From contig SCTY01000010.1 in the NCBI GenBank assembly GCA_004297625.1, positions 74,324-138,323 on the forward strand: DNA of 64,000 bases. Direction: 5' to 3'. Shown here piece after piece: positions 20,189 through 38,548 of the stretch. The position numbers and the translations under genes were made by a program. Within the stretch, counting starts at the first letter, position 1. Each line of letters starts with the position of its first letter. The notes beneath the pieces are model-generated. The model had not been told where the DNA came from. It was given only the letters and a program-made list of their open reading frames with translations, and did not search any database. Source of the DNA: Betaproteobacteria bacterium (GTDB lineage: Bacteria; Pseudomonadota; Gammaproteobacteria; Burkholderiales; SG8-39).

Positions 20189-21577
20189 CTACAAAAGGCG
20201 CACGCGGGGTACGGGAAAGGCATCGACCAGCGCGCGCGCTGCATCAGGGACCGCGTCGAGGCCGCGAACTGCCGCGATAAGGCGATCGGCCTGATCGCTC
20301 GAGCTGCCGAGCCCGAAGGCGAGGCAACCTCGAAGCTTTTCGTCGAGCTCGGCATCGCCCATTGGATCTGCGGGGCTGCCCTTCATGGTGAAGCTTGATA
20401 GGTTGAGCGTTTTCCCATTGCGCAGCGTTACCGTCGCGCGGGCCGGTTCTATTGCGCGCGCCTCGATCGACGGATCGTCCACCACGCGAATGATTGTTGT
20501 CAGCGCCACAACTGCCTCGTCGGCGATGGCGTCCTGTTGGAAGGCAGAGAGGCCCACTTTACCGTCGATCAGCGCGCGCGCGAAGCTGTAGGCTGCGTTG
20601 AACTGCGCGTGTACGACCGATTTCTCGGCCGGGTCGTAGGTTTGCCCGACTGTGCGCCAATTTAGGTTTCCAAGGCCGATCTCGATGCTCGCGACGTCCT
20701 TCGCCCGCACGCCATCCCGATGCAAGCGCAAACCAAGGCCGATAACGGTATGGTTGCAACGGCAGCCCGGGTAGGGCTTGAAGCTGTATTCCGGAACCCG
20801 CCAGCTTTCGCCCCAGCCGGCCATGAGCGCCTCGGGTTTCACCTCGCCGCGCTCATAGAGCGCGAACAGTCCGGCCTCGCCTTCGAGCGTCCGGCGTGGT
20901 CCCGTGACGCCGTCCTTTGCCAGAAAAGCGGCGAGCACGGCCGCCCGAGCCGCGAAGCCGGCCCCTAGGCGCTTGGAAAGCGCGCCGTCGTGCATGCTTT
21001 GCGCGGAGCCGCTCGCCTGGTGGAAGGCGAGACCAAGCGCGTCGCCCAGCGCTTTCGAGCTCAATCCGAGCAGCTTGCCCACCGCGAGGCCGCTGGCGAG
21101 CGCGCCGAACACCGTGGTTGGATGCCAGCCATGACCGAGGCTGCCGTAGCAGGCGAGACCAAGGCGGGCATGCACTTCGGCCCCGACCGCCATGGCCAGG
21201 ATGAAGCGCTTGCCCTCGACGCGGCCTACATCTTCCGCGGCCGCGAGTACCGAAGGAAGCACGATGCAGCCCGTGTGGACGCGAGCGGCGTCGTGCAGGT
21301 CGTCGAAATCGAGCGCATGTGCCGCCGCACCGTTGGCGAGTGCCGCGGTGGGCGGCGAATGGCGCCGTTTGCCAAGGAGGCCTGTGGACGAGCCTTCTGA
21401 TTCCCAGCGCGAGAGGCGCGCGTTCAACTCAGGGATCCCTGGGGCGCCGGCCGCACCGGCGACCAGGCCGAGTGCGTCGAGGCTCAGGCGCCTGACCCCC
21501 GCCACGACGGCCGGCGGCAGGTCCTCGTAGCGAAGCGCGTGAACCGCTTCGCAGAGTTGCCGGCTAAGCCCTTCCAC
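20189..21577 (-). CDS. MmgE/PrpD family protein (not canonical PrpD)
   Basis: NGAAAHALDFDDLH, GWHPT, KPYPGCRCNH and KGSPADPM motifs. Confidence 0.9.
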   Translation of the reverse strand: MEGLSRQLCEAVHALRYEDLPPAVVAGVRRLSLDALGLVAGAAGAPGIPELNARLSRWESEGSSTGLLGKRRHSPPTAALANGAAAHALDFDDLHDAARVHTGCIVLPSVLAAAEDVGRVEGKRFILAMAVGAEVHARLGLACYGSLGHGWHPTTVFGALASGLAVGKLLGLSSKALGDALGLAFHQASGSAQSMHDGALSKRLGAGFAARAAVLAAFLAKDGVTGPRRTLEGEAGLFALYERGEVKPEALMAGWGESWRVPEYSFKPYPGCRCNHTVIGLGLRLHRDGVRAKDVASIEIGLGNLNWRTVGQTYDPAEKSVVHAQFNAAYSFARALIDGKVGLSAFQQDAIADEAVVALTTIIRVVDDPSIEARAIEPARATVTLRNGKTLNLSSFTMKGSPADPMGDAELDEKLRGCLAFGLGSSSDQADRLIAAVRGLDAVPDAARALVDAFPVPRVRLL

Positions 21578-22745
21578 GCGCGATGCCGAGCTCCGCGAGG
21601 ATTTCCTCGGTGTGCTGGCCGAGATCCGGCGTGTGGAGCGTCTGCTCCTTGCGGTCGGCGAAGCGCACGGGGTTCGATGGAATACGCGCGGCCTTGCCGT
21701 GGACGTCGACCTCGCGTAGCGCTCCGATGGCTCTTACCTGCTCGCTTTGCAGGGTCTCCTCGAGCGTGAGCACACAGGCGAACGGAATCTTCATGCGCAC
21801 GAATTCCTGCTCCCAGTAGGCGCGAGGCTGCTCGCGGATCTTCTTCGCGATCTCGGCTCGCTCCCACGGATAATCCATGCCGTGGTCCATCTCGCTGCGG
21901 CCCCATTTGCCGCATGACTTCCAATCCTCCGGCAGCCCGAGCAGCGCACAGAACGCTTCCCAGAACACTTTCTCGATCGGGCACACGAGGACGATTTTCC
22001 TGTCGCTCGTCTCGTACGTGGCGTAGCGGCCACCGAAGTCCGCGTAGCTGAACCAGCGTTCGCCGAGATTGGCGAACGTTCCGACGTGGCGCCAGTTCCA
22101 CCAGATCGCGGCGCCGAAAAGCGAGACGCTCAGCCGCTGCGGCTCCCCGGTGGCGTCGCGGCGGCGGAGCGCCGCCAGGATGCCGAGCGCGCCAAATATG
22201 CCGGCAAGCGGCGCGCCGGCGGATTGGTACATGGCTTGCGGGTAGGGAAGGCCGTCTCGCCACTCGATAGGCACGATTCCGGCGTACGCGTCCGGGTTGA
22301 GGCCGTGCGCGGGCAGCGCGCGCAGAGGCCCCTCTTCGCCGTAGCCGGTGACGTTGCACTGGACGATTCGCGGATTCGCCGCCGCGAGGCTGTCGAAATC
22401 GAGTCCCAGCTTCTTCAGCCCCTCCGGAAGCCCGCCGACAAGCATCACGTCCGCCCAGCGCGCGAGCGCCTTTATCACCTGCGGCCATTCGGGCGCGCGG
22501 CTGGACAGCGCGAGGCTGCGTATCCCCGCGTTCAGGCTGACATGGAAGAGACCTTCGCCGTGGATGTAGGGGGCGAAGCCGCGCGTCGCATCGCCGGTTT
22601 TCGGGTTCTCGACCTTGATGACCTCCGCGCCGAGGTCCCGCAACAAGCGCGCCGCCACCGGGCCAGGCATGTAACGGGTGAAATCGACGACCCGGAAACT
22701 CCCGGGCTCCCACAGTGGATATTCAGTATTCTGAATCGATGTCAT
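21564..22745 (-). CDS. CaiB/BaiF class III CoA-transferase family protein, catalytic Asp apparently absent
   Basis: RVVDFTRYMPGP...LGAEVIKVE, LAAANPRIV and TGYGEEGP. The catalytic segment reads AGAPLAGIFGALGILAAL. Confidence 0.85.
   Translation of the reverse strand: MTSIQNTEYPLWEPGSFRVVDFTRYMPGPVAARLLRDLGAEVIKVENPKTGDATRGFAPYIHGEGLFHVSLNAGIRSLALSSRAPEWPQVIKALARWADVMLVGGLPEGLKKLGLDFDSLAAANPRIVQCNVTGYGEEGPLRALPAHGLNPDAYAGIVPIEWRDGLPYPQAMYQSAGAPLAGIFGALGILAALRRRDATGEPQRLSVSLFGAAIWWNWRHVGTFANLGERWFSYADFGGRYATYETSDRKIVLVCPIEKVFWEAFCALLGLPEDWKSCGKWGRSEMDHGMDYPWERAEIAKKIREQPRAYWEQEFVRMKIPFACVLTLEETLQSEQVRAIGALREVDVHGKAARIPSNPVRFADRKEQTLHTPDLGQHTEEILAELGIARGRA
22719..22736. promoter_or_regulatory. 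Palindromic operator candidate ATATTCAGTATTCTGAAT (copy 1)
   Basis: ATTCAG-N4-CTGAAT inverted repeat, 16/17 identical to 28392-28408, at the divergent caiB/leuC-like junction. Confidence 0.7.
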
Positions 22746-22753: not shown

Positions 22754-24151
22754 ATGTTAGCGCGCACTACGCTCTACGACAAGCTGTGGGAAGCGCATTG
22801 CGTCTCGCACAGGCCGGACCATCCGGCCGTCATGTACGTGGACCTTCACCTCGTACACGATGGGACTTACCGGCGCGCGTTCGAAATGCTCGAACAAGGC
22901 AAGCTCGCGGTGCGTCGCCCGGACCTTACCTTCGCAACCACGGATCACTGTCTGCCAATCTCCGATCCCTCGCGGCCGATGCCGCCGGTGGTCACCGGTC
23001 TTTCGGCCGCGTGCGCGCGCCACGGCATATCCATCTACGGGCCCGAGCACGAGCGCCAAGGCATCGTTCATGTCATCGGGCCTGAGCTTGGGCTAACCCA
23101 GCCCGGCAAGTCAGTTGCCTGCGCGGATAGCCATACCACGACGCACGGCGCCTTCGGCGCGCTCGCGTTTGTCATCGGTACCACGCAGGTGCTGCATGCA
23201 CTCGCCACACAGTGCATTCTCCAGCGCCGCGCGCGCACGATGAGCATCGTGATCGACGGTGCGCTTCAGCGCGGCGTCACGGCGAAGGACTTGATCCTCG
23301 CAATCATCACGCGCTACGGGATTGCAGCGGCGAGCGGTCACGCGGTCGAGTTCTCCGGCAGCGCGATACGCGCCATGGGAATGGAGGAGCGCATGACATT
23401 GTGCAACATGGCGGCGGAGCTCGGCGCTCGCACGGCCCTCATAGCGCCCGATGACAGGACCCTCGACTACCTGCACGGCCGCCCCTTCGCGCCGAAGGGT
23501 ACCGACTGGGAGCGCGCGCTCGCCCGCTGGCGCCTGCTCGTGTCCGGGGAAGATGGCCGTTTCGATTCCCGATTACGCTTTGACGCGTGTGAGGTGCACC
23601 CGATGGTGACGTGGGGGACCACGCCTGCCATGGGGATGGCCGTCAACGCCGCTATCCCAGCGCCGGAGAGCGTCGGCGCGCCGGAGGAGCGTGAAGCGGC
23701 GGAGCAAGCATTGCGCTATATGGGACTCGCGCCGGGAACCACTGCGCAGGAAATGCCGGTCGACGTGGTGTTCATCGGTTCGTGCACCAACTCCAGGATC
23801 GAAGACCTGCGGGCCGCGGCTGGAGTCCTGCGCGGCCGGAAGGTCGCGCCGGGCGTGCGGCTGCTCGTTGTGCCCGGTTCTCAGGCGGTGCGCCGGCAGG
23901 CTGAAGCCGAGGGGCTGCGTGAGGTGTTCACTGCGGCGGGGGGCGAATGGGGTCGGCCGGGCTGCAGTTTGTGTGTTGCCATGAACGGCGAGTTCGCCGG
24001 CGCGCGCAAATACGTTGCGAGCACCAGCAACCGTAATTTCCAGGACCGTCAAGGGCCGGGCGCGCGCACGCTGCTCGTAAGTCCGCTCACCGCCGCGGCG
24101 AGCGCAGTCGACGGCAGGATTGCCGACCCGCGCCGCTATCTCGCCGACTGA
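22754..24151 (+). CDS. 3-isopropylmalate dehydratase-like large subunit (LeuC/DmdA family, divergent)
   Basis: TLYDKLW, DSHTTTHGAFG, IGSCTNSRIEDLR, GCSLCVAMN and STSNRNF. Three Fe-S cysteines are present. Confidence 0.9.
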   Translation: MLARTTLYDKLWEAHCVSHRPDHPAVMYVDLHLVHDGTYRRAFEMLEQGKLAVRRPDLTFATTDHCLPISDPSRPMPPVVTGLSAACARHGISIYGPEHERQGIVHVIGPELGLTQPGKSVACADSHTTTHGAFGALAFVIGTTQVLHALATQCILQRRARTMSIVIDGALQRGVTAKDLILAIITRYGIAAASGHAVEFSGSAIRAMGMEERMTLCNMAAELGARTALIAPDDRTLDYLHGRPFAPKGTDWERALARWRLLVSGEDGRFDSRLRFDACEVHPMVTWGTTPAMGMAVNAAIPAPESVGAPEEREAAEQALRYMGLAPGTTAQEMPVDVVFIGSCTNSRIEDLRAAAGVLRGRKVAPGVRLLVVPGSQAVRRQAEAEGLREVFTAAGGEWGRPGCSLCVAMNGEFAGARKYVASTSNRNFQDRQGPGARTLLVSPLTAAASAVDGRIADPRRYLAD

Positions 24152-24156
24152 AGCCC

Positions 24157-24741
24157 ATGGCGTCCTTCCGTCATCTTCGCTCGCGCCTGGTGCCGCTGCT
24201 CGGACCCGACATCGATACCGACCAGATCATTCCAGCGCAGTACGTGAACGCCGCCGGAACCGAGGCACTCGCGCGCGCGCTCTTCCGGCGCCTGCGTGAC
24301 CAAAATGCCCGATTTGTGCTCGATCGTCCGGAAATGGCGGGCCGTACGGTGATGTTGGTGGGAAGCAATTTCGGTTGCGGCAGCTCGCGGGAAGCGGCTG
24401 CGTGGGCGCTGTCGGCCTGGGGCATCCGGGCGCTCATCGGACGTTCCTTCAATGCCACGTTCTCTGGCAATTGCCTGCAGAACGGCCTGCTGCCGATCGC
24501 CGCGCCGCTCGAAGCGCACGGCGCGCTTTGCGAAGCGATCGGCGCGGGTGCCGACCCGGAGATCGCAATTGATCTCGAGCGCGACCGAGTCGAGTTCACC
24601 GAGCTGGGGATCGCGTTTTCTGTCGGCCTCGAGCCATTCGCCCGCGAGCTGCTGTTACGCGGCATGGACGAGTTGCATTACCTGCTGGATCGCCGCGCGG
24701 AGATCGAGGCGTACGAAACACGTGGAGGACCTTTGCAATGA
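24157..24741 (+). CDS. 3-isopropylmalate dehydratase-like small subunit (LeuD/DmdB family, divergent)
   Basis: DIDTDQIIP, NFGCGSSREAA and NCLQNGLLP. Confidence 0.9.
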   Translation: MASFRHLRSRLVPLLGPDIDTDQIIPAQYVNAAGTEALARALFRRLRDQNARFVLDRPEMAGRTVMLVGSNFGCGSSREAAAWALSAWGIRALIGRSFNATFSGNCLQNGLLPIAAPLEAHGALCEAIGAGADPEIAIDLERDRVEFTELGIAFSVGLEPFARELLLRGMDELHYLLDRRAEIEAYETRGGPLQ

Positions 24742-25865
24742 ACCCGAAGGCCAAGATAACCCGAGTGGAGACGATCCCCGTCGCGGTACCGTTCCGCGTG
24801 CCGTTCAAGATTGCCAGCGGCGGCGCGCGGCCAGTCGGTGAAAACCTGTTGGTGCGGCTTCATACTGACCAGGGACTGGCCGGAATCGGAGAGACGCAAG
24901 CGTGGCGCCGGCAGGGGAGCACGGAGACATTCGCGAGCCTGAAATGCGCCATAGAAGAGCACCTCGCTCCGCGCCTCATAGGGCGCTCGCCTTTCGAGCT
25001 GCCGGCGCTCGTGCGGGCCATGGACGAGGCGCTTTATCCGGCGCTCTACGCCAAGGCCGGCATCATCGACGGCCTCTACGACCTTCAGGGCAAGCTCCTC
25101 GGCGTGCCCGTGTGGCAGCTCCTCGGCGGCAAATGCCGCGACGCGGTCGGAGCTTGCGCGGTCCTGCCTATCAAAGACTCGCTCGAAGAGACGCTCGCCG
25201 GCGCGGACGACTTCCACCGCCGCGGTTTTCGCAGCTTCACAGTCAAGGTGGGCGTGAACGCCGAGGCCGAGGTAAAGCTGGTCGCCGCGGTTCGAGAACG
25301 CTTTCCCTCGGCAATCATCCGCGTCGACGCAAATGCGAGCATGAGGTTCGACGCGGCCCTGGCATTGCTTGAGAAGCTCGCGCCTTACGGGCTGGATGCA
25401 GCGGAACAGATGGTGCCGATGTGGGACCTCGAGGGCATGGCGGAGCTCGCGCGCCGCGTTCCGGTTGCGATCATGGCGGATGAGTGCGTCGGCACCGTTC
25501 ATGACTTGCTCGAAGTGATCAAGCGCCGCGCTGCAACCGTCATGCAAACGAAAGTGGCGAAAAACGGCGGCATCTGGCACATGCGCATGCTGTGGACACT
25601 CGCGCATGCCGCGGATATGCGCATCTACCCGGGCAACCATCCGAGCACGAGCGTCGCGACGGCCGCCGTCGTACATCTGGCCGCCGCGTGGCCGGGTCCG
25701 TTGCTTGACGGACCGTTCGCGGTCGGTATCAGCGGTGCGTTCGCTCGCGACGTCGTGCTCGAGCCGCTGAGCGTAGAGAATGGAGCGGTCCGAGTGCCCG
25801 ATGGCCCGGGCCTCGGCGTGGCTCTCGATGAAAAGGCGATCGCCGCCATGCGGGTCGACAAATGA
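24738..25865 (+). CDS. Enolase superfamily, muconate cycloisomerase-like
   Basis: RVDANA, AEQ and MADE metal ligands; KVAKNGG; PDGPGLGV. The KxK motif appears as TVK. Confidence 0.88.
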   Translation: MNPKAKITRVETIPVAVPFRVPFKIASGGARPVGENLLVRLHTDQGLAGIGETQAWRRQGSTETFASLKCAIEEHLAPRLIGRSPFELPALVRAMDEALYPALYAKAGIIDGLYDLQGKLLGVPVWQLLGGKCRDAVGACAVLPIKDSLEETLAGADDFHRRGFRSFTVKVGVNAEAEVKLVAAVRERFPSAIIRVDANASMRFDAALALLEKLAPYGLDAAEQMVPMWDLEGMAELARRVPVAIMADECVGTVHDLLEVIKRRAATVMQTKVAKNGGIWHMRMLWTLAHAADMRIYPGNHPSTSVATAAVVHLAAAWPGPLLDGPFAVGISGAFARDVVLEPLSVENGAVRVPDGPGLGVALDEKAIAAMRVDK

Positions 25866-26719
25866 GGACAGGAAAGCGGCTGGCAGTCGCGCGAAAGGCG
25901 GCGAAGCCTGAGGGCGCGCGCACCGTCGGCCGCGTGCTGCGCGCTCTCGAGCTGCTGGCCGGACAGGGCGGCCCGCTGCGGCTCATGGAGATCGCGCGCG
26001 AGCTCGGCATCCCCACCAGCTCCGCGCATGCCCTCGTGCAGCAGCTCATCCGCTTCGACTACGTCAAGACCGTCGGCGAGGAACGGCGCTATGTCGCCGG
26101 GCCGGCGCTGGTGCTGCTCGGCACGCGGGTTCGGGCCGGTTTGCAGATCGTCAAGGTGGCGCGCTCGGTGCTCGAGGAACTCGCCGCGGCGACGGGGGAG
26201 AACGTTTACCTCGGCATCCGTCAGGCGCACGGCATCGTCTACGCCGACTCCATCGAAGCCGAGTCCGGGGTGATGGCACGCTTTCCGATCGGCTCCATGC
26301 GACCGCTGCACGCATCCAGCCCCGGCAAGGTCTTTCTCGCGTTCCAGGTACCCCCGGTTCAGCTCGATGCTTTCCTCGGCCCGGGTCCGCTGCAAGCGTT
26401 CACCCGGCACACGATCACCGACCGCGTCAGGCTACGGCAGCAGCTGGACCAGGTCCGTGCGCGAGGGTACGCGGTAAACGAACAGGAAGCGGTGGAGGGA
26501 GCGTTCGGCGTTTCGGCACCTATCTTCGGGGCCGACGGGGCGCTTGCCGGGTCGATCACTCTGGGGCTTCCGGTAGTGCGCTACAAGAGCGGGCGCGACA
26601 TGGCGATCCGGAAGGTCACTGCGGCCGCCACGGAAATCTCCCGCAGGCTCGGGGTCGAGAGCTGGAGCGAGACCCTCAGGTCGTTTTCGCGCCCTTTGGC
26701 CGCAGCTGATCTGCGCTGA
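25862..26719 (+). CDS. IclR family transcriptional regulator
   Basis: N-terminal HTH; TGENVYL, PLHASSPGKVFLA, TRHTITD and RGYAVNEQE. Confidence 0.93.
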   Translation: MRTGKRLAVARKAAKPEGARTVGRVLRALELLAGQGGPLRLMEIARELGIPTSSAHALVQQLIRFDYVKTVGEERRYVAGPALVLLGTRVRAGLQIVKVARSVLEELAAATGENVYLGIRQAHGIVYADSIEAESGVMARFPIGSMRPLHASSPGKVFLAFQVPPVQLDAFLGPGPLQAFTRHTITDRVRLRQQLDQVRARGYAVNEQEAVEGAFGVSAPIFGADGALAGSITLGLPVVRYKSGRDMAIRKVTAAATEISRRLGVESWSETLRSFSRPLAAADLR

Positions 26720-28313
26720 AACGGTTCACCTGAATGCCGCTCGCTTCGCGGTCCCACATCTCGCGATAGCCGGCCTTCGCGATCTCGCGCAGAGCCGGCT
26801 TGGAGATCTTCTGCGAGGGCGTCTTGGGCAACTCGTCGACGAAGCGGACATAGCGCGGCACCATGAAGTAAGCCATCTTGCGCACGGCATACTCGATCAC
26901 GGCGCGCTCGGTGAGCTCGGGCGTCGCCTTCACGATGAACACCGCGACTTCGTCCTCGCCGAGTTCGGACGGCACCGGCACCGCGGCCGCCTCCAGGATG
27001 GCCTCATGGCCCTTGAGGATGGTCTCGATCTCGAACGCTGAGATATTTTCGCCGCGGCGCCGAATCGCATCCTTCACCCGGTCGACGAAGAAGAGATAGC
27101 CGTCCGCGTCGAGGTAGGCACGGTCGCCGGTATGGAACCAGAGATTGCGGAAGGCCGCGAGCGTCGCCTCGGTCTTGCCGCAGTAGCCGGAAAACATCGT
27201 CCACGGCTGGCGCGTGCGGAGCACGATCTCGCCGGGTGTCCCGCGCGGCACCTCGACATCATTCTCGTCGACAATGCGCAGCTCCACGTTGTCGGACACG
27301 CGCCCGGAAGTGCGCGGCTTGTCGTAGGCCTCGCCGGCCGCCAGCACCGCGACCGGGCAGGCTTCGGAGAGGGCATACTGCGAGATGATCTGCAGACCCC
27401 AGCGCTCCTCGAGTTGCCGCCGGTTCGCCGGCGGCGGCACGAGCGCGGCGATACGCACTGGATTGTCCTGCTCCTCGGGCGTCACCGGCAGCTTCTCCAG
27501 GATCGACGCGACCACCATCATCGCGTTGAATTGCGTCGCCCGGTATCGATGAATGTCGGACCAGAAGCGGCGCGCGGAGAAGCGCGCCTCTAGCGCCACC
27601 GTCGCCCGAGCCCAAAGCGCCGTCAGCGTCGAGTAGTTAAGCGCATTGCCGTGGAACAGCGGCAAGCACGTGTAGAGCCGATCGGAACGCTCGAGCGCCA
27701 TGCGCATCGCCTGCGTGCGCCCGATGCTGAGCGAGTGCGCGTTCGGGCAGATGCTGCCTTTGGAGGGCCCGGTAGTCCCGGACGTATAGAGGATGAGCCA
27801 CGGATCCCAGGCGTTGAGGGCGACGTCGAGCGAACTTCCGCGCAGCGCCTCGCCGTCGGCGAGCACATCGTCCCACGTCGGAAGGTTGTGATCCGATGCC
27901 TGCTCCAGGGAAACAAGGACCATCGGGAGCGCAATGCCCGGCCATGCCTCGCGCAGCACCGGCAGGTAGCTGTCCTGGACGACGACATGCGTGCAGTCGG
28001 CGTCCTGCAGGTAGTAGCGCAGAAGCTCCGCGCGCGCGGCCGTGTTGATCGGCACGTTGAGGGCACCGAGCTTTGCCACCGCGAATAGCGTCAGGATGTA
28101 GCGCGGGCTGTTGTCGAGAATGGTCGCGACCCGGGCGCCCCTTGAAACTCCCCGCTTGCGCAAGCCGTGCGCAAGCTGCGTCGACAGCCGGTCTACGTCA
28201 GCGTAGGAGAACACCTCGTCGCCGTGCAGGATGAACGGCCAATCGGGCTGCGCTTCCGCGGCGCGCCGCAACACTGTCGGCAGCACTCGCTCTTGCAGAG
28301 GAAAGTCGATCAT
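26676..28313 (-). CDS. AMP-dependent acyl-CoA ligase (CaiC-like)
   Basis: YTSGTTGPSKG, LPLFHGNA, WFHTGD, DRVKDAIRRRGENIS and PKTPSQKI. Confidence 0.92.
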   Translation of the reverse strand: MIDFPLQERVLPTVLRRAAEAQPDWPFILHGDEVFSYADVDRLSTQLAHGLRKRGVSRGARVATILDNSPRYILTLFAVAKLGALNVPINTAARAELLRYYLQDADCTHVVVQDSYLPVLREAWPGIALPMVLVSLEQASDHNLPTWDDVLADGEALRGSSLDVALNAWDPWLILYTSGTTGPSKGSICPNAHSLSIGRTQAMRMALERSDRLYTCLPLFHGNALNYSTLTALWARATVALEARFSARRFWSDIHRYRATQFNAMMVVASILEKLPVTPEEQDNPVRIAALVPPPANRRQLEERWGLQIISQYALSEACPVAVLAAGEAYDKPRTSGRVSDNVELRIVDENDVEVPRGTPGEIVLRTRQPWTMFSGYCGKTEATLAAFRNLWFHTGDRAYLDADGYLFFVDRVKDAIRRRGENISAFEIETILKGHEAILEAAAVPVPSELGEDEVAVFIVKATPELTERAVIEYAVRKMAYFMVPRYVRFVDELPKTPSQKISKPALREIAKAGYREMWDREASGIQVNRFSADQLRPKGAKTT

Positions 28314-28383: not shown

Positions 28384-28391
28384 AATGTATC

Positions 28392-28408
28392 ATATTCAGC
28401 ATTCTGAA
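28392..28408. promoter_or_regulatory. Palindromic operator candidate ATATTCAGCATTCTGAA (copy 2)
   Basis: TTCAG-N4-CTGAA; 16/17 match to 22719-22735; at the divergent ligase/tcuA-like junction. Confidence 0.7.
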
Positions 28409-30922: not shown

Positions 30923-30930
30923 CGCCCTCG

Positions 30931-31911
30931 ATGCGGGCGATCCTGATCGAGAAGGCTGAAAGCGGGCAGCGGGTCGCCCTGGGCGAAGTGGACGAGGATC
31001 GACTTCCCCAGGGCGACGTAACCGTCCGAGTCGACTATTCGACCGTCAATTACAAGGACGCCCTCGCCATAACAGGCAAGGCGCCGGTGGTGCGCAAGTA
31101 CCCGATGGTGCCGGGCATCGACTTCAGCGGCGCGGTGGAAGCGAGCAGTGATCCACAGTGGAAGGTCGGTGATCGCGTTGTCCTGAACGGCTGGGGTGTC
31201 GGCGAAACTCATTGGGGCGGGCTCGCGCAGCGCGCGCGTGTCAAGGGGCAGTGGCTGGTGCGCCTGCCCGAAGGCCTCACGTCCTACCAGGCGATGGCAA
31301 TCGGCACGGCCGGTTATACCGCCATGCTTTGCGTGATGGCGCTCGTGAAGCACGGCTTGAAGCCAGGCGATGGCGAAGTGCTTGTCACCGGAGCGGCAGG
31401 CGGTGTGGGCAGCACAGCGATCGCATTGCTTACTGGTCTTGGTTACAACGTAGTCGCTTCAACTGGCCGACCGGCGGAAACCGAGTACCTCAGGGTGCTG
31501 GGAGCGAGCGAAGTGGTCGACCGCGCCCAATTCTCGTCTCCGGGCAAACCTCTCGTGAAGGAGCGCTGGGCGGGCGCAGTCGATGCCGTTGGTAGTCACA
31601 CACTGGCGAACGTGTGCGCGGCGATGCGCTACGGTGGCGCGGTGGCTGCGTGCGGACTCGCTGGCGGCATGGATTTCCCTGCCACAGTCGCACCGTTCAT
31701 CTTGCGCGGCGTGACGCTGTACGGTATCGACAGCGTCATGGCGCCGGCGAATTTGCGGCAGGAGGCGTGGCGCCGCCTTGCTGCAAACCTCGACCGCGCC
31801 AAGCTTGACGCTATGGCAGGCGAGATCTCGCTGGGAGAAGCGATTGCGGCGGGCGCACGCGTGATAGCTGGTCAAGTGCGCGGGCGGCTCGTCGTCAATG
31901 TGAACCGCTGA
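30931..31911 (+). CDS. acuI: Acryloyl-CoA reductase AcuI/YhdH family (MDR)
   Basis: [38 protein letters not shown] and PFILRGV. Confidence 0.88.
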
Positions 31912-31923: not shown

Positions 31924-33123
31924 ATGGGCGAGCCGCCGCTCGGCGCTCTGGCGGGAATCCGGGTCCTGGATCTCGGGAATTTCATGGCCGGGCCGATGGC
32001 GGCGACCTGGCTCGGCGACTTCGGCGCCGAGGTGATAAAGGTTGAGCACCCACGCGGCGACGGGGTGCGGCACTGGGGCCAGACCAAGAACGGCGATCCG
32101 CTTTACTGGAAAATGCTGTCGCGGAACAAGCGCTGCATCACGCTGAACCTCAGCAAGCCCGAGGGACAGAAGCTGCTCCGTGACTTGGCCGCCAAGAGCG
32201 ACGTACTTGTCGAGAATTTCACGCCCGGCACGATGAGCCGGTGGAACGTCGGCTACGAGCAGCTGAGCAAAGTGAACCCGCGGCTCGTCATGCTCAGCAT
32301 CTCGGCCTACGGGCAGTCGGGACCGTATTCGCTGCGCCCGGGCTTCGGCACGCTCGCCGAAGCGATGAGCGGCTTCGCCTATATCAACGGCCAGGCCGAC
32401 GGGCCGCCGACGCTGCCGTCGTTCGGGCTCGCCGACGGAATCGCGGGCCTGAACGGCGCGTTCGGAGTGCTCGTCGCCTTGCGCCACCGGGATGCGCACG
32501 GCGTCGGCCAGCATATCGATGCCGCGCTCTACGAGCCGCTGCTCACGGTTCTCGGCCCCCAGGTAATCGAATACGACCAGCTCGGAATCGTGCAGGACAG
32601 ACTGGGGAGCCGGCTGCCATTCTCCGCGCCGCGCAACGTCTACAAGACGAAGGACGGCCAGTGGCTGTCGATGTCGTCGAGCGCGCAGAGCGTGTTCGAG
32701 CGCACCATGCACGCCATCGGCAAGCCGCACCTGATCCAAGACGAGCGTTTCCTGGACAACCGCAAGCGCGGCGCGAACGTCGAGGCGCTCGACAAGGAGA
32801 TCGCCGCATGGTGCTCGCAGCATACGATGGAGCAGGCGATGCAGATCCTGGTGAAGCACGAGGCGGCCGCGGCGCCGGTCTACAGCGTGGCAGACGTCGT
32901 CTCAGATGCCCACTTCACGATGCGCGGCAGTGTGGTTGCCGTCAACGATGCGAACCTCGGTCCGGTGAAAATGCAGGCGCCTTTCCCGCGGCTGTCGAAA
33001 ACTCCGGGGAAGATCCGATCGACCGGGCCGAAACTCGGCGAGCACAATCGCGAAGTTTACGGGGCGCTGCTCGAGCTCGGCGAGACGGAGCTCGAGCGCC
33101 TTGCGAGCCAAGGCATCATCTGA
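31924..33123 (+). CDS. CaiB/BaiF class III CoA-transferase
   Basis: LAGIRVLDL, RNKRCITLNL, DVLVENF and LADGIAG with the catalytic Asp retained. Confidence 0.93.
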   Translation: MGEPPLGALAGIRVLDLGNFMAGPMAATWLGDFGAEVIKVEHPRGDGVRHWGQTKNGDPLYWKMLSRNKRCITLNLSKPEGQKLLRDLAAKSDVLVENFTPGTMSRWNVGYEQLSKVNPRLVMLSISAYGQSGPYSLRPGFGTLAEAMSGFAYINGQADGPPTLPSFGLADGIAGLNGAFGVLVALRHRDAHGVGQHIDAALYEPLLTVLGPQVIEYDQLGIVQDRLGSRLPFSAPRNVYKTKDGQWLSMSSSAQSVFERTMHAIGKPHLIQDERFLDNRKRGANVEALDKEIAAWCSQHTMEQAMQILVKHEAAAAPVYSVADVVSDAHFTMRGSVVAVNDANLGPVKMQAPFPRLSKTPGKIRSTGPKLGEHNREVYGALLELGETELERLASQGII

Positions 33124-33134
33124 GGAGCGCGAGC

Positions 33135-33983
33135 ATGAAGAAGAAGCTGCGCAGGTCCTGGCTGCTTACTCTGACGACCGACGATCGCAAGGTGCAGAAA
33201 GCGGCCGAGTCGAGCGCCGATGTCCTGATCCTCGACCTGACCGACTCGGTGACGCCTGAGCTCAAGCACGAGGCGCGCCGCCGGGTCGTCGACTGGCTGA
33301 AAGGAAGCCATCCATTCGGCGACAAGCAGGTTGCAGTCAAGCCGAACAACCTTTGGAGCGAATGGGGCCGCGACGATCTGGAAGCGATATCGTCTCTTCG
33401 GATGGACGTGCTCTATTATCCGGAGGCACGCAGCGCGGACGAAGTGCGGATGGTGCAGCGCGCGCTCGACGAGGCGGGATCACAGGCCGAGATCGCCGTG
33501 CTTCTGGAGACGCCGCAATCTTTCCTCGAGATTCGCGAGCTCGCCGCGGTGCCGCGCGTCACCGCTTTCAACCATGCCCAAGGCGACCTGTCCGTGAACC
33601 TTGGCGTGGCCCTTACCGATAGCCGCGAGACGCTGCTCTACACTGCCTCGCAACTCGTGCTCGTTGCCCGGGCTTACGGCCTGCTCGCCATCGATACCGC
33701 TCTGCCGTCCGATTTGCGCGATGCGGCGTTAAGCCGCCGCTATATCGAAAGCTCTCGCCGTATGGGCTTTCAGGCGAGCTCGACCTTCTACGCGCCGCAT
33801 GTCGATGCAATCAATGCGGTCTTCTCGCCAGGGGAAAAGCAGCTCGCGGAGGCCCGCGAAATCATCGCCGAGTACGAGAAAGTGAAGAAGACGGGGCGAG
33901 CCGCTTACGTACGGCCGGATGGCAGGTGGGTCACCGTTCACCAGTTCAGGCAGGCGCTGGAGATGCTCGAGCAGTTCGGATAA
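33135..33983 (+). CDS. HpcH/CitE-like CoA-ester lyase family (divergent)
   Basis: RRSWL, ADVLILDLTDSV, LLETP, GDLS and HVDAINAVFSP. GGAG RBS before ATG 33135. Confidence 0.82.
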   Translation: MKKKLRRSWLLTLTTDDRKVQKAAESSADVLILDLTDSVTPELKHEARRRVVDWLKGSHPFGDKQVAVKPNNLWSEWGRDDLEAISSLRMDVLYYPEARSADEVRMVQRALDEAGSQAEIAVLLETPQSFLEIRELAAVPRVTAFNHAQGDLSVNLGVALTDSRETLLYTASQLVLVARAYGLLAIDTALPSDLRDAALSRRYIESSRRMGFQASSTFYAPHVDAINAVFSPGEKQLAEAREIIAEYEKVKKTGRAAYVRPDGRWVTVHQFRQALEMLEQFG

Positions 33984-33989: not shown

Positions 33990-35186
33990 TCAGGCGCGCT
34001 CGAAAATGGCGGCCATGCCCTGGCCGCCGCCGCAGCACATGGTCTCGAGGCCGTAGCGCCCTTTACGCCGCTTGAGCTCGTACAGCAGGCTCGCGAGGAT
34101 GCGCACCCCGGTCGCGCCGATCGGGTGGCCGAGCGAGATTCCCGAGCCGTTCACGTTGAGGCGCTCGGGGTCGTTCCAGCCCCAGCCCTTGAGCACCGCC
34201 AGTACCTGGCAGGCGAAGGCCTCGTTCAGCTCTACGAGATCCAGCTTGTCCCAGGTAAATCGCGTCTTGGCAAACAGCTTGGCCACGGCGGGTACGGGTC
34301 CGATTCCCATGATGCCGGGCTCGCACCCGGCTGCGGCCCAGCCGGTAAGGAAGCCGGCGGGCGTGAGCTCCAGCGAAGCGAGCTTGTCCTCGGCGACCAC
34401 AAGGCAGGCGGCCGCCGCATCGTTCTGCTGGCTCGCATTGCCGGCCGTCACGATACCGTCCTTCACGAGCGGCTTGAGTTTGGCGAGGGTTTCCATGCTG
34501 GCGTCGGCGCGAAATCCTTCGTCCTTGGCGAAGACGACCGGGTCGCCCTTTCTCTGCGGCACGCTCACCGGGACGAGCTCCTCGTTGAAGCGGCCTTCCT
34601 TCCACGCGGCCGTGGCGCGCTGGTGGCTGCGTACCGCGTACGCATCGGCTTCCTCGCGCGTAATCTTGTACTGCTTGGCCAGGTTCTCCGCCGTTTCGAT
34701 CATCCCGGAAATGCGGCCGAAACGCTCCACCGGCTGCGAGCGTTCGCGGCCGCGCGCCAGGCGATCGTGCAGCGTGACCGAGCCCATTCGCGCGCCCCAG
34801 CGCATGTCTAGGGTGTAGTACTCCACGTTGCTCATGCTCTCGGCGCCGCCGGCGAGCACGACATCGGCGGCGCCGGTCTGGATCATCATCGCGGCGGTCA
34901 CGACGGCCTGCAGCCCGCTGCCGCAGCGCCGGTCCGTCTGGATTCCAGGCACCTCGATCGGTAATCCCGCTTCGAGCGCGGCGTAGCGGCCGAGGCACGG
35001 CGTTTCGCCGTTCGGATAGCCGTGCGCGAAAACCACGTCCTCGATGCGCGCCGGATCGATGCGCGAGCGCTCGACCACCGCCTTGATGGCGGTGGCGGCG
35101 AGTTTTTCCACGGGTACGGTGCGCAAAGCGCCGCCATAGCCGCCTACTGCGGTACGGACCGGCGTCACGATAGCTGCGCGTCTCAT
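33990..35186 (-). CDS. Acetyl-CoA C-acyltransferase (thiolase)
   Basis: RRCGSGLQA, TAGNASQQND, LNEAFA, GHPIGATG and CCGGGQG. Confidence 0.95.
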   Translation of the reverse strand: MRRAAIVTPVRTAVGGYGGALRTVPVEKLAATAIKAVVERSRIDPARIEDVVFAHGYPNGETPCLGRYAALEAGLPIEVPGIQTDRRCGSGLQAVVTAAMMIQTGAADVVLAGGAESMSNVEYYTLDMRWGARMGSVTLHDRLARGRERSQPVERFGRISGMIETAENLAKQYKITREEADAYAVRSHQRATAAWKEGRFNEELVPVSVPQRKGDPVVFAKDEGFRADASMETLAKLKPLVKDGIVTAGNASQQNDAAAACLVVAEDKLASLELTPAGFLTGWAAAGCEPGIMGIGPVPAVAKLFAKTRFTWDKLDLVELNEAFACQVLAVLKGWGWNDPERLNVNGSGISLGHPIGATGVRILASLLYELKRRKGRYGLETMCCGGGQGMAAIFERA

Positions 35187-35232: not shown

Positions 35233-35616
35233 CTAGGCGCGGCACGCTAGACCGGCGAGGTAGTCCACGATGGCGTTCCCCGAGCTTCCCGGAGGAAAGA
35301 CCTTGGCCACGCCTCTCGCCAGCAGCCTCTCGATCTGCTGCGGAGGGACGTGGCCGCCGCAAACCACCGGCACGTCGGTGAGTTGGTGCTTCTCGATAAG
35401 GTCCATGAGGTCGTCGACGAGCGCGAAGTTCGAGGCGTGCAGGCTGATGCCGATCACATCCGCGTCTTCCTCGATGGCCGCGTCGACGATCATGGCCGGC
35501 GTCTGGTTGGTGCCGAGGTAGACCACCTCGAATCCCGCGTCGCGCAAGAGCGTTGCCACGACCTCGGCGCCGGTGGTGTGGCTGTCCAGCCCGATCATGG
35601 AGAGGATGACTTTCAA
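35233..35616 (-). CDS. Cobalamin-binding small subunit of an acyl-CoA mutase
   Basis: GLDSHTTG (DxHxxG), LRDAGFEVVYLG, EEDADVIGIS and VCGG. TTG start overlaps the mutase stop. Confidence 0.93.
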   Translation of the reverse strand: MKVILSMIGLDSHTTGAEVVATLLRDAGFEVVYLGTNQTPAMIVDAAIEEDADVIGISLHASNFALVDDLMDLIEKHQLTDVPVVCGGHVPPQQIERLLARGVAKVFPPGSSGNAIVDYLAGLACRA

Positions 35617-37232
35617 AGCTCGTACGGGCAGCGGATCAGCTTGAAGGGATCGTAGCTCAGGCCGCGGGCGAGGCGGATCGCGCCCATGATCTCGCCGGCC
35701 GTGGCGTAAGCCTTCACCGCGTCGATGATGGCGGGCATCAGATTGAATCGGTCACCCTTCTCAGCGTCCGCATGAAGCCGCCGCACGCTCGCCTCGATTG
35801 GCGCCATGTCGCGCGTCTTCTTCCAGTCCGCCATGCGCTTGGCGATGGCCTCGGCATCGCTCACCTCGATCGCTTGAACAGGAACCTGGAACATTTCTTC
35901 TTCCGGGGGGATGACGAGGTGGTTGACGCCGACGACCAGCCGTTCCTTGCTGTTCAGCTCCTGGAACTTGAGGTTCGCCTCTCTCTTCAGCATGGTCTCG
36001 ATGTATCCCTTCTCGATCGCGGCGACGAGCCCGCCCAGCGCGTCGATCTCCTCCAGGACGCGATAGGCCGCGGTCTCCACCTCGTGGGTGAGCCTCTCGA
36101 CGAAATAGGAGCCGGCGAGCGGATCGACCACGTCGGCGACCCCGGTCTCGACGGCGACGATGTGCTGCGTATTCAGCGACATCCGCGCCGCGAGGGCGGA
36201 GGGCTCAGCATAGGCATTGTCCAGCGTGGCGTTGTCGAGCGCCGTGCAACCGACCATGGCGCCGGCCAACGTCTCGATGGCGCAACGCGCAATGTTGTTC
36301 AGCGGCTGCTGGTACGTCATGGTCCGGCCCGAGGTATGGACCGCAATAAGCAGCTGGCAAGACTTCTCGTTCTTCGCTCCGAAGTGCTCTTTGGCCATCT
36401 TCGCCCACATGCGGCGCAGCGCGCGCACCTTGGCGATCTCTTCGAAGAAACGGGTCCCGATGCTCACGAGCTGGTAAGGCACCCGCATCGCGTCGTCGAA
36501 CTCGAGCCCGCGCTCGGCGACCAGGCGGCCGCAGATTTCCTTCAGCATGGAAAGCTCGATGGCGAGTGCCTGCGCGTTGTTGCCGCCGGATTCCTGGAAG
36601 TGCTGGCCGACCAGGCCGGCGCGCATGCGAATGCCGTTGCGCACGATGTACTCGGAAGCGTCGAGGAACAGCTTCATGTCGAGGTCGAAGGGCTGCACGT
36701 CGGTCTGCCCGAAGACATTTCCGAACGGCGACTCGGTGACGCTGCCGTGGATCTCGGCGAGGTCGACGCCCCGCGCTTCGGCGAGCGCCACCACGTAGGC
36801 GAGGCGCAGCGTCGAGGGCGCGCAGCAGCCAAGCACGGTAATCGATTGGCCGGTGAGCGGAATGTCGTCCATCAGCTCTTCGAACTCGGCGAGCGAGCTG
36901 CCGGGCCAGCCGAGGACGCCGTTCTCGCGCCGCGCGAGCGGATGGTCGGCGTCGATGCACGAGGAGGAAACGCGGTCGTGAATGACGCAGATGCCGCCGT
37001 GCTGGCCCATCTCGCGATACTTCTTCAGGACCGCGTTGGTGTCGCGCGAGGAGCCAAGGCCCGCGGTCATCCGCCGGGTCCACATGCGGCTGCGGTAGCC
37101 CTGCGCGTGGTAGCCGCGCGTATAGGGGAAGCGCCCGGGATCGCCGAGGTCGCGCTCGTACTCCAACCCCTCGACATCGCGCGGCCCGTAGACCGGCTTG
37201 ATTTCGTAGCCGTAGTCGGTGGCGTATTTCAT
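35613..37232 (-). CDS. Methylmalonyl-CoA mutase-family large (substrate-binding) subunit, atypical
   Basis: LGDPGRFPYTRG, FFEEIAKVRALRRMWA, QQPLNNIAR, DPLAGSYFVERLT and NLMPAIIDAVKAYATAGEI. Start at ATG 37232. Confidence 0.93.
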   Translation of the reverse strand: MKYATDYGYEIKPVYGPRDVEGLEYERDLGDPGRFPYTRGYHAQGYRSRMWTRRMTAGLGSSRDTNAVLKKYREMGQHGGICVIHDRVSSSCIDADHPLARRENGVLGWPGSSLAEFEELMDDIPLTGQSITVLGCCAPSTLRLAYVVALAEARGVDLAEIHGSVTESPFGNVFGQTDVQPFDLDMKLFLDASEYIVRNGIRMRAGLVGQHFQESGGNNAQALAIELSMLKEICGRLVAERGLEFDDAMRVPYQLVSIGTRFFEEIAKVRALRRMWAKMAKEHFGAKNEKSCQLLIAVHTSGRTMTYQQPLNNIARCAIETLAGAMVGCTALDNATLDNAYAEPSALAARMSLNTQHIVAVETGVADVVDPLAGSYFVERLTHEVETAAYRVLEEIDALGGLVAAIEKGYIETMLKREANLKFQELNSKERLVVGVNHLVIPPEEEMFQVPVQAIEVSDAEAIAKRMADWKKTRDMAPIEASVRRLHADAEKGDRFNLMPAIIDAVKAYATAGEIMGAIRLARGLSYDPFKLIRCPYEL

Positions 37233-38548
37233 GACTGCTCCTTCGGAAGAACGCGCCGCGCCTTCGCTTCGTAGCGCGGCAGGGTGCCGTACGGATGGCA
37301 CTCGACCGGCACCTTCAGGCCGAGGCGGCTCGACAGGCTGCGCGCCACGATCCCGGCGAGATCGGAGCTTCGAGCGGCGTGGCCCGCATCGCATTCGATC
37401 GCGACCGTCATCGACTTGGGCGAGCCGTCGACCGTATCGACGTAGATTTGCCAGGCGTCCTTGACGGTCCCGGGCGTGCCGGCGACGACGTCTTCGATCT
37501 GGGAAGGGAACACCAGGACGCCCCTCACCTTGAGCACGTCGTCCGACCTTCCGATGATGCGGCCTATGGTCGGCATGCCGCGGCGACCGCATTCGCAGTC
37601 GTAGGGCTTCTCGGCCATGCGTACCAGATCGTGCGTGCGCCAGCGCACCACCGGCGAGGCCTCCTTGTCCAGGGTAGTCACCACCACTTCGCCGACTTCG
37701 CCGGGTCCTGCGGGCTTCAAGCTCTGGGGATCGAGAAGCTCGGTGATCACGGCATCCTCGTTGATGAGGTGCATTTCGTCGCGCCGGTGAGCATACGGGC
37801 ACGCGGCGCCGAGATTCGGGCCGCCGGACTCGGTGGTGCCGTAGCTGTTGCGGGCGGTAAAGCCCGCCGGCATTCCGGCCTCCAGCTCATCGCGGAAGGC
37901 GCGCGACACGGCCTGGCCGCCGATGATCGCCATGCGCACCTTCCAGTCCTTGCGCGGATCGATGCCGTGCTCTCGCGCCACGCGCAGCAGGTTTGCGAGG
38001 AAAAGCGGCGACACTGCGGCCACATCCCAGGCAAGCTCGCGCACCCATTGCACCACGAGCTCGCTGCGACCCGGACCGACCGGAAAGCAGGTCGTGCCGA
38101 GCTCTTGCAGCGCCAGCTCGTGCGCGGGACCCCCGATCCACAGACCATAGCCGAAACCTTGGTAGACCCGATCGCCGGGGCGCACGCCGCTGCAATAGAG
38201 CTGCCGCGCCACCTGGATGGAGAGCTGCCGCAGATCATTGCGAGTAAACCCGAAAAGCACCGGCAGGCCGGTGGTGCCCGAGGTGGCGAAGAAGCGGACC
38301 ACCTTGGAGGCCTCTACCGTCAGCATGGGGAACGGATAACGCGCGCGCAGGTCCGCTTTTTCCATCGTCGGCGCGTGGGCCAGCCCGTCCGCGGCTGCCA
38401 GGTCGCGCGGATGCATGCCTGCCTTGGCGAAGTGCTCGCACCAGTCGGGCGAAGCGGCCAGCCGCTCGCCGAGCGCGGCCAGCTTGCGCGCCTGTAGAGC
38501 CCGCATGCCGTCCCGGTCGAGCGACTCGATTTCCGGATGCAGCATCAT
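37229..38548 (-). CDS. Phenylacetate-CoA ligase (PaaK)-family CoA ligase
   Basis: MEKADLRARYPF, ATSGTTG, GYGLWIGG, YGTTE, VRWRTHDL and GRSDDVLKVRGVLVFPSQIE. Confidence 0.92.
   Translation of the reverse strand: MMLHPEIESLDRDGMRALQARKLAALGERLAASPDWCEHFAKAGMHPRDLAAADGLAHAPTMEKADLRARYPFPMLTVEASKVVRFFATSGTTGLPVLFGFTRNDLRQLSIQVARQLYCSGVRPGDRVYQGFGYGLWIGGPAHELALQELGTTCFPVGPGRSELVVQWVRELAWDVAAVSPLFLANLLRVAREHGIDPRKDWKVRMAIIGGQAVSRAFRDELEAGMPAGFTARNSYGTTESGGPNLGAACPYAHRRDEMHLINEDAVITELLDPQSLKPAGPGEVGEVVVTTLDKEASPVVRWRTHDLVRMAEKPYDCECGRRGMPTIGRIIGRSDDVLKVRGVLVFPSQIEDVVAGTPGTVKDAWQIYVDTVDGSPKSMTVAIECDAGHAARSSDLAGIVARSLSSRLGLKVPVECHPYGTLPRYEAKARRVLPKEQS

Follow-up and report, generated by a model that had tools for sequence, protein, structure and literature searches.

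A 16-gene insertion between lysE and dusA that appears to join two separate catabolic modules, one presumably for a succinate-type acid and one around a B12-dependent mutase

The window analyzed here is a 64,000-nucleotide stretch of contig SCTY01000010.1 (positions 74,324 to 138,323 of the forward strand; assembly GCA_004297625.1) from Betaproteobacteria bacterium, a member of the Burkholderiales (SG8-39). At positions 20189-38548 it carries a tightly packed block of 16 open reading frames (ORFs) between dusA and lysE-panE (Table 1). The block holds (i) module A, 12 genes that run from a PrpD-like protein to a CitE-like lyase, and (ii) module B, a cassette of a PaaK-like acid-CoA ligase and a split B12-dependent acyl-CoA mutase, beside which lies a thiolase gene. 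With a probability of roughly 0.6, these are two independent catabolic modules brought together in one insertion, A directed at a succinate-type acid and B built on the ligase and the mutase. Families were assigned with Pfam and NCBIfam models, whose scores were read against the model cut-offs; they agree with the 16 genes, coordinates, and families given by an earlier reading made from the letters of the window (hereafter the sequence-only reading).

Table 1. Features of the inserted block and its flanks, in window coordinates, with the family models that identify them (scores followed by model cut-offs).
Feature	Coordinates	Strand	Family evidence and remarks
dusA, left flank	19172..20122	-	NF008774 483.6 > 269; adjoins panE/lysE in same-genus genomes
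MmgE/PrpD-family protein (PrpD-like)	20189..21577	-	PF03972 and PF19305
Family III CoA-transferase CaiB1	21564..22745	-	PF02515; all NCBIfam equivalogs below cut-off
LeuC-like aconitase-family large subunit	22754..24151	+	NF009116 634.8 > 531
LeuD-like small subunit	24157..24741	+	NF002458 170.6 > 167
Enolase-superfamily MR/MLE (mandelate racemase/muconate-lactonizing) enzyme	24738..25865	+	PF13378 and PF02746; single copy in genome
IclR-type regulator	25862..26719	+	PF09339 and PF01614
AMP-forming acyl-CoA ligase	26676..28313	-	PF00501 and PF13193; PRK06155 499, cut-off 722
TcuA-like FAD (flavin adenine dinucleotide) flavoprotein	28385..29914	+	NF006130 573.9 > 369; TIGR02485 265.1 < 372.55
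Bug/TctC periplasmic receptor of the tripartite tricarboxylate transporter (TTT) family	29936..30922	+	PF03401
AcuI/YhdH-type enoyl-CoA (acrylyl-CoA) reductase	30919..31911	+	NF051456 544 > 440
Family III CoA-transferase CaiB2	31924..33123	+	PF02515 417.7 bits
CitE/HpcH-type acyl-CoA lyase	33120..33983	+	PF03328; right end of module A
Thiolase	33990..35186	-	NF004853 676 > 551; 46 bp downstream of MutS, same strand
B12-binding small subunit MutS	35233..35616	-	PF02310 85.9 bits and TIGR00640
Acyl-CoA mutase large subunit MutL	35613..37235	-	PF01642 408 bits; long ORF runs to 37274
PaaK-like acid-CoA ligase	37229..38548	-	PF14535 and PF00501; PaaK TIGR02155 261, cut-off 646
lysE-panE, right flank	38631..40234	-	PF01810; PanE NF005089 393.5 > 223

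The 18.4 kb block is a real insertion between lysE and dusA, as the sequence-only reading had placed it. The distance from dusA to panE was tabulated by hand from coordinates in the same-genus genomes that have both genes on one contig (n = 22). It ranges from 3 bp to 4.0 kb in 20 of these, compared with 19.1 kb in the window genome (G000; 87 contigs, 97% complete), which identifies 20189-38548 as inserted DNA. In the same-genus genome G011, panE, lysE, and dusA follow one another with zero genes in between. A different insert of 23.2 kb occupies the lysE|dusA junction of G015 (L228/L229, G015:C35:35900-61100) and contains no homologue of any island gene; the junction is therefore a variable spot. 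Among the traits by which genomic islands are recognized, the block displays absence from the site in relatives; mobility genes, flanking repeats, and deviant composition were looked for and not seen. No integrase or transposase occurs among the 16 genes, no repeat of at least 8 nt is common to both junctions, and no deviation in GC or GC3 marks the insert, the GC content being 0.64-0.69 in the window and 0.64-0.67 throughout the block, without a break in composition there. (Throughout, L numbers label compared loci, G numbers compared genomes, and C numbers contigs.)

Strand and spacing divide the block into five transcription units, one more than first proposed: (i) CaiB1-PrpD, (ii) LeuC-LeuD-Enol-IclR, (iii) the AMP-forming ligase alone, (iv) TcuA-Bug-AcuI-CaiB2-CitE, and (v) PaaK-MutL-MutS-thiolase. 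Modules A and B converge tail to tail at 33983/33990. A scan of the region for promoters and terminators returned one promoter-like and 13 terminator-like sites, none above shuffled expectation; the sole promoter-like site, at 28354-28383, lies 5′ of the TcuA-like gene. Only 8 bp lie between the start codons of the divergent CaiB1 and LeuC genes (22745-22754), a spacing that is equally tight in L148, and hence the promoters lie inside coding sequence or one of the starts is miscalled.

The families represented in the block are heavily expanded in G000. By tblastn (E ≤ 1e-20, at least 60% coverage), the genome yields 87 Bug, 19 and 23 CaiB-type, 25 AMP-ligase, 9 PrpD-like, 7 TcuA-like, 6 mutase large-subunit, and 9 PaaK-like matches. 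Adjacency alone therefore means little, and it is the synteny tests that carry weight. Three genes served as anchors, namely the TcuA-like gene (80 loci), the enolase-family gene (first 4 loci, then 80 with alignment A1), and the mutase large subunit (57 loci), and every island protein was scored against the flanks of the anchor loci. A search with the whole block as DNA in 40 relatives returned paralogue-level matches only, the strongest for the TcuA-like gene (~70% at the nucleotide level), and was too insensitive to reveal synteny. No real neighbor cluster surrounds the TcuA homologues in more than 13 of 80 loci, and the Bug receptor alone recurs beside the 80 enolase homologues (21 loci); neither result hinted at a function.

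Module A (20189-33983, 12 genes) is very likely one functional unit. The contig L148, from a Burkholderiales metagenome-assembled genome (MAG), is collinear with the window through PrpD (62%) and CaiB1 (74%), LeuC (68%), LeuD (54%), the enolase-family gene (76%) and IclR (67%), the ligase (75%), and TcuA (85%) and Bug (77%), where percentages are identities to the window proteins. L149 has the arrangement of L148 as far as its contig extends, L068 is collinear from CaiB1 (83%) to Bug at 67-86% (ligase, 82%), and L151 holds LeuC-LeuD-Enol-IclR on a 3.6 kb contig. In L152, CitE (64%) and CaiB2 (71%) directly adjoin PrpD (58%) and CaiB1 (71%), with LeuC-LeuD-Enol-IclR and the ligase (72%) beyond them, and another contig of the same MAG (L069) carries TcuA (81%) and Bug (59%). 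Across the syntenic loci the LeuC-like orthologues are 56-75% identical, the CitE-like orthologues always adjoin CaiB2, and the IclR regulator is found in place in L068, L148, L149, L151, L152, and Szabonella alba. L149 (CAZQTL010000069.1) is labelled ‘uncultured Thermoanaerobaculia’; given that its gene order and identities are almost those of L148, the bin label is probably wrong.

Szabonella alba DMG-N-6, a cultured alphaproteobacterium (overlapping loci L071/L157), possesses 11 module A orthologues at 44-76% identity in a changed order: CaiB1 58%, LeuC 56%, LeuD 48%, CaiB2 66% (range 65-66%), CitE 59%, PrpD 44%, Enol 63%, ligase 61%, IclR 49%, TcuA 76%, and AcuI 57%. Between TcuA and AcuI it has a binding protein of the TAXI type of tripartite ATP-independent periplasmic (TRAP) transporters and a fused DctM permease, in place of the Bug receptor of the window. 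The genes have thus been rearranged yet retained, with the transporter displaced by a non-homologous one, which argues for module A as a functional unit. On the minus strand of L157 (16599-19801), the LeuCD-like genes are followed by a same-strand ferredoxin-reductase-type flavoprotein (Pyr_redox_2 and Reductase_C), and a 477 aa DAO-like FAD oxidoreductase precedes the ligase; both are possible electron-transfer partners that are absent from the window. Smaller loci combine paralogues of the enolase-family and LeuCD genes with TcuA, CaiB, or CitE (L150, L155, L159, L170, L182, and L192) and would fit a free-acid core with optional CoA steps. The enolase-family marker occurs in 0 of 200 other genomes of the window's family, and module A is therefore a rare acquisition.

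Module B has its own distribution. MutL and MutS belong to the adenosylcobalamin (AdoCbl) acyl-CoA mutase family, as the former has the MM_CoA_mutase barrel and the latter is a separate B12-binding subunit. The true start of MutL is likely the internal Met at residue 14 of the long ORF, 13 codons in, because its homologues measure 536-548 aa. MutL recurs at 67-86% identity in 41 loci, while its next-best relatives fall to 34-36%. These loci are labelled Burkholderiales, Rhodocyclales (Sulfuritalea, Sterolibacterium), Rhodospirillales, Xanthobacteraceae, Desulfobacteraceae, Desulfatiglandales, and Syntrophorhabdus. MutS follows MutL in 37 of the 41, and in 20 the gene immediately upstream of MutL encodes the PaaK-like ligase (57-80% identity); other AMP-ligase types take its place in some contexts. 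Genes for TetR, MeaB, and TRAP or ATP-binding cassette (ABC) uptake systems recur around the cassette. The L036-type context comprises an amine-oxidase-like flavoprotein, a Liv-type ABC transporter with a fused AMP-ligase, MeaB, and a 635 aa acyl-CoA dehydrogenase. The mutase is present in 6 of 200 other genomes of the family, from five genera, and in 0 of 15 genomes of the same genus. On contig C83 of G000 (~133955-134575), a MeaB domain sits in a 1082 aa open frame that adjoins a mutase paralogue match; the frame resembles a fused mutase of the IcmF type.

The thiolase is not conserved with module A or with module B. The 57 mutase loci contain none beside the mutase, nor do six family-level stretches, five of which have the full ligase-mutase trio, and none occurs in the 80 enolase loci. 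By its position and orientation (Table 1), it is probably part of module B.

The separation of the two modules rests on the anchor searches. Not one of the 80 TcuA, 80 enolase, and 57 mutase loci contains an orthologue-level partner from the other module, and module A orthologues are likewise missing from the six family-level stretches around the mutase. Two unlinked routes are favored because the PaaK-like ligase, MutL, and MutS never accompany module A genes, and because the family distributions of the two markers differ (enolase in 0 of 200 genomes, mutase in 6 of 200). These counts speak against a single ~18 kb island for one acid, as the sequence-only reading had it. Its broader wording, one or two linked routes, comes closer to the result. 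The check it had proposed, conserved synteny of the gene set, came out divided along the same line: the left 12 genes co-occur elsewhere, the ligase-mutase cassette does not travel with them, and the thiolase keeps to neither.

The active site of the mutase differs from those of the enzymes to which it was aligned. MutL residues were read from HMMER alignments to HcmA and three methylmalonyl-CoA mutases (MCMs). We take Tyr89, Gln197, Arg207, Tyr243, and His244 of MCM and Ile90 and Asp117 of 2-hydroxyisobutyryl-CoA mutase (HCM), in the numbering of those enzymes, to be the positions that shape the pocket and its specificity. MutL has (i) Thr where MCM has Tyr89 and HCM has Ile90, a residue shared by all 39 readable clade members (39/39); (ii) Ile-His-Asp-Arg where HCM has Asp117-Phe-Asp-Met and MCM has Ala-Phe-Asp-Leu; (iii) SVTESPF...GQTD where MCM has TIQNDILKE...VRNT (Gln197 to Arg207); and (iv) Gln-His where MCM has Tyr243-His244, the His of the ‘GYH’ motif being retained. 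The signature WT[QR]RMT[AV]GLG / VI[HSC]DR / GQTD / QHFQESG is found in 39-41 of the 41 loci. Read from these alignments, the pocket changes are properties of the whole clade and not of one gene. At the position of MCM Arg207 MutL has no Arg, a hint that its substrate lacks a free carboxylate; however, the surroundings of the pocket have gained His and Arg residues, and a dicarboxylyl-CoA may yet be the substrate.

In the proposed route of module B, the PaaK-like ligase would activate an acid, the mutase would rearrange its carbon skeleton, and ordinary β-oxidation or thiolysis would follow, the next step in this genome perhaps being taken by the co-oriented thiolase. The substrate is presumed to be a branched acid. 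It is not 2-hydroxyisobutyrate, for which the genome encodes a separate set described below.

Module B could instead be a known system, either the phenylsuccinyl-/benzylmalonyl-CoA mutase IaaGH with its ligase IaaB or a pivalyl-CoA mutase with its ligase, although this is unlikely. IaaB is PaaK-like and pivalate degraders are Rhodocyclales, and the mutase clade includes Rhodocyclales, Desulfatiglandales, and Desulfobacteraceae. According to PMC8360864, the iaa operon of Aromatoleum aromaticum combines the CoA ligase IaaB, the B12 mutase IaaGH, the family III CoA-transferase IaaL, and the acyl-CoA dehydrogenase IaaF, and the operon is reported in Desulfatiglans and other sulfate reducers. Module B thus resembles it in pairing a ligase with a B12 mutase, IaaGH acts on a substituted succinyl-CoA, and the taxa overlap. 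In contrast, no annotated mutase context unites a CaiB-type CoA-transferase with an acyl-CoA dehydrogenase; the L036 group has the dehydrogenase and the L026 group a CaiB-like gene. The L036-type context was considered as an iaa operon and rejected, its gene content being unlike that of the operon as given in PMC8360864. Furthermore, the best 120 MutL homologues bear generic names or none, and their visible labels are MAGs or ‘[genus] sp.’ with no named isolate among them.

The PrpD-like protein of module A is a member of the MmgE/PrpD superfamily, with both domains, the listed carboxylate-coordinating residues, and the catalytic His. Orthology to PrpD (2-methylcitrate dehydratase) was rejected, as the protein scores 57.9 against a cut-off of 950 with NF042438. 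Its best PDB matches are a B. subtilis IRG1-like protein, iminodisuccinate (IDS) epimerase, and cis-aconitate decarboxylase (116-130 bits). It retains the equivalents of IDS-epimerase H85, D88, H99, H150, K198, and K266; Tyr145, the second base of that enzyme, aligns to Leu, and a two-base epimerase mechanism is not shown. The LeuC-like and LeuD-like subunits exceed their model cut-offs, and LeuC keeps the Fe-S cysteines (‘GSCTNSR’, ‘GCSLC’). The pair is the third LeuCD copy in G000, 53% and 51% identical to the other two, and bears motifs common to the cluster orthologues only, which differ from the two other copies in the genome; in LeuD, for instance, the clade-specific SFNATF stands where the others have SFGDIF. 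The enolase-family protein scores 194 with the muconate cycloisomerase model, below the cut-off of 335. In alignment A1, its K170, D197, E223, D248, and K272 do not vary, and Thr replaces the first Lys of the KxK motif; we take D197, E223, and D248 to be metal ligands and K170 and K272 to be the catalytic lysines. The AcuI-type reductase scores above its equivalog cut-off, and the CitE-like lyase has 3qll as its best PDB match (88.9 bits). The clade-specific pocket motifs of MutL, LeuC, and LeuD bear out an earlier claim of departures at catalytic or specificity positions. ‘Rewired pockets’ is a fair description, and in each case this is the mark of a distinct orthologous group.

By analogy with these families, module A may tentatively be assigned to the degradation of a di- or tricarboxylic acid with a succinate backbone, its presumed substrate being a 2-substituted succinate or a tricarboxylate. 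A succinate backbone is suggested because MmgE/PrpD substrates share a C4 1,4-dicarboxylate core and tricarballylate, the named substrate of TcuA, is itself a 2-substituted succinate, and because the PrpD-like protein keeps the six putative catalytic residues of IDS epimerase. According to PMC12290011, all known substrates of the family have this core, with substituents at C2 or C3; methylsuccinate isomerase has joined the family; and the six residues are putative catalytic residues of IDS epimerase, whose counterparts in methylsuccinate isomerase were docked around the two carboxylates of the substrate. In the proposed scheme, the acid would enter via the Bug/TTT system, and oxidation by the TcuA-like flavoprotein would turn the 2-substituted succinate into a substituted maleate or fumarate, in the manner of the oxidation of tricarballylate to cis-aconitate. 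The LeuCD-like hydro-lyase would then hydrate this product to a substituted malate, a CaiB-type transferase would load it onto CoA, and the CitE-like lyase would cleave the CoA ester to acetyl-CoA and a 2-oxo acid or to glyoxylate and an acyl-CoA. The PrpD-like and enolase-family enzymes may channel stereo- or regioisomers into the route as epimerases or isomerases, and an unsaturated CoA ester of the 2-methylene or acrylyl type could be processed by the ligase together with the second transferase and the AcuI-type reductase.

A plainer possibility is that module A is a tricarballylate- or aconitate-type route in which the TcuA-like enzyme catalyzes the reaction that it is named for, the LeuCD-like protein acts as an aconitase, and the remaining genes are unrelated neighbors. 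Tricarboxylates are the classical ligands of Bug/TctC receptors, LeuCD is a member of the aconitase family, and the TcuA-like protein scores above the NF006130 cut-off and adjoins an uptake component of the tricarboxylate type, much as in tcuABC of Salmonella. This reading is nonetheless quite improbable. The TcuA-like protein falls below the cut-off of TIGR02485, the cluster lacks TcuB and TcuC, and TcuB is absent from all of G000, where the best TIGR02484 match, at 37.2 bits, falls short of the cut-off of 246.6. In place of TcuC there is a Bug/TTT transporter in the window and a TAXI-TRAP one in S. alba. The TcuA-like gene keeps its linkage to eleven other genes, and the CoA enzymes, the lyase, the PrpD-like protein, and the enolase-family protein remain with TcuA and LeuCD across the rearrangements of L152 and S. 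alba, which would not be expected of bystanders.

Several observations weigh against the division into two modules and the functions proposed for them. The 12-gene set of module A is not invariant, since L148 lacks AcuI, CaiB2, and CitE within 5 kb, and AcuI accompanies the cluster in the window and S. alba only. Most TcuA homologues (78 of 80, 65-76% identity) and ~60 enolase homologues (50-66%) lie in unrelated contexts, and their family-level function may not be specific to the pathway of module A. A MaoC- or crotonase-type hydratase and an electron acceptor for TcuA are absent from the cluster. The syntenic beta-proteobacterial contigs come from related MAGs and are non-independent, which leaves S. 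alba as the one clearly independent case, and the reaction assignments are all made by family analogy. The cassette of the window includes neither a MeaB nor a TetR gene; the genome encodes MeaB at another site. Lastly, seven Desulfobacterota loci (L039, L042, L044, L046, L047, L048, and L051) place the mutase clade beside a PrpD-like gene. Five to six of the seven also have an AMP-ligase (26-29% identity), a fumarate-reductase-type (Sdh-type) flavoprotein (five loci), and TRAP genes (six loci), which is the mix of families seen in module A.

These loci speak for a reading in which all 16 genes serve one pathway, where the acid of module A would be rearranged by the B12 mutase at some step and then thiolysed. 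Physical adjacency in one insertion is consistent with this idea, as is L012, where an AcuI-like gene (45%) and a CaiB-like one occur in the vicinity of the cassette. A single pathway is nevertheless still less probable than the readings above: besides the zero counts at orthologue level and the differing family distributions, S. alba has module A and none of module B within the 33 kb examined, and the modules converge tail to tail. The Desulfobacterota PrpD-like proteins are 29-34% identical to that of the window, no higher than the genome's own paralogues (31-36%), and therefore do not indicate orthology. In L039, L042, L046, L048, and L051 (and partly in L040 and L047), the mutase is divergent from genes for TRAP DctPQM, a 549 aa flavoprotein, an AMP-ligase, and a PrpD-like protein; the full TRAP-flavoprotein-AMP-ligase-PrpD set is found in L039, L042, and L046, and a TetR gene is nearby in four loci.

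The Desulfobacterota loci also leave room for a mutase that, like IaaGH, takes a substituted succinyl-CoA as its substrate. A long shot is that the clade rearranges 2-substituted succinyl-CoA (alkyl-, aryl-, or carboxyalkyl-) and that its landing beside module A is no accident. If true, this would amount to an undescribed route for substituted succinates, common to organisms from Burkholderiales through Desulfobacterota and composed of a succinate dehydrogenase-like flavoprotein, an MmgE/PrpD epimerase, a CoA ligase, and a new B12 mutase. Candidate substrates would be metabolites that anaerobic hydrocarbon degraders form by fumarate addition, or reduced acids of the itaconate type, and the window would hold the most complete aerobic version of the route. 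A chance mosaic without functional meaning, which the large paralogue counts (87 Bug, ~20 CaiB, 25 ligases, 9 PrpD-like, 7 TcuA-like) might suggest, is hardly credible, since L148, L068, L152, and S. alba retain 9 to 12 genes in synteny at the orthologue level and 20 loci do so for the ligase-mutase trio; the random mosaic that the sequence-only reading had named as its own refutation is thus countered by the recurrence of the left 12 genes in related MAG contigs and in S. alba.

To our knowledge, the specificities of only a handful of AdoCbl acyl-CoA mutases are known. The mutase clade, conserved at 67-86% across phyla with a pocket signature of its own, is indicative of a new substrate, which would extend this short list of specificities, and it is the most promising single lead. 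Module A provides a defined gene set for the free-acid oxidation and hydration of a branched or polycarboxylic acid, unlike the CoA-ester logic of the itaconate/methylsuccinate cluster. Because cultured S. alba DMG-N-6 carries module A, the latter is open to ordinary genetics and growth assays.

No description of either gene set was found in a search of the openly available main-text literature, and neither module is tcuABC, the itaconate/methylsuccinate cluster, the methylcitrate cycle, or hcm. This agrees with the sequence-only reading, which had recognized no known pathway, tcuABC, itaconate, and hcm included. In architecture and logic, module B resembles hcl-meaH-hcmAB of Aquincola tertiaricarbonis (PDB 4R3U and 6HDW), in which a PaaK-family ligase likewise adjoins a split AdoCbl mutase, and HcmA (4r3u_A) is the best solved match of MutL at 269 bits. 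The differences are that (i) the window ligase matches 2-hydroxyisobutyryl-CoA ligase (HCL, 6hdw_A) at 110 bits and PaaK at 220 bits, (ii) MutL has Thr and Ile at the positions that map to HCM Ile90 and Asp117, the roles of which we presume as above, and (iii) no MeaB gene is adjacent to the cassette. The true hcm set of this genome lies on contig C27 (L250 3631-7876, minus strand). There, an HcmA-like protein matches 4r3u_A at 967 bits, a ligase of the HCL type matches 6hdw_A at 831 bits, and a GTPase of the MeaB type is encoded at 5304-6275. MutL and this HcmA-like paralogue share 34% identity, and the identification of module B with hcm was rejected on the scores of 269 and 110 bits against 967 and 831 bits for the same chains.

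Both modules are built from well-known enzyme families. The LeuCD-like pair shares with isopropylmalate isomerase and its DmdAB/homoaconitase relatives the conserved Fe-S cysteines and scores above the LeuC and LeuD cut-offs; it differs in being a third copy with clade-specific pocket motifs that is embedded in a catabolic cluster. According to PMC12290011, the itaconate/methylsuccinate cluster of Pseudomonas and Cupriavidus comprises Ict, Ich, Ccl, Mcd, and Msi, and Msi genes always adjoin Mcd. The 16 window proteins include no MaoC/crotonase domain (as in Ich) and no acyl-CoA dehydrogenase (as in Mcd), the lyase lies far under the RipC cut-off (130.7 against 375), and the oxidation and hydration of module A would take place on the free acid and not on the CoA ester. 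Like module A, this cluster brings together a CoA-transferase, a CitE-type lyase, and an MmgE/PrpD isomerase around a substituted succinate, and by that analogy it is the best precedent for the roles proposed for the PrpD-like protein, CaiB2, and the CitE-like lyase.

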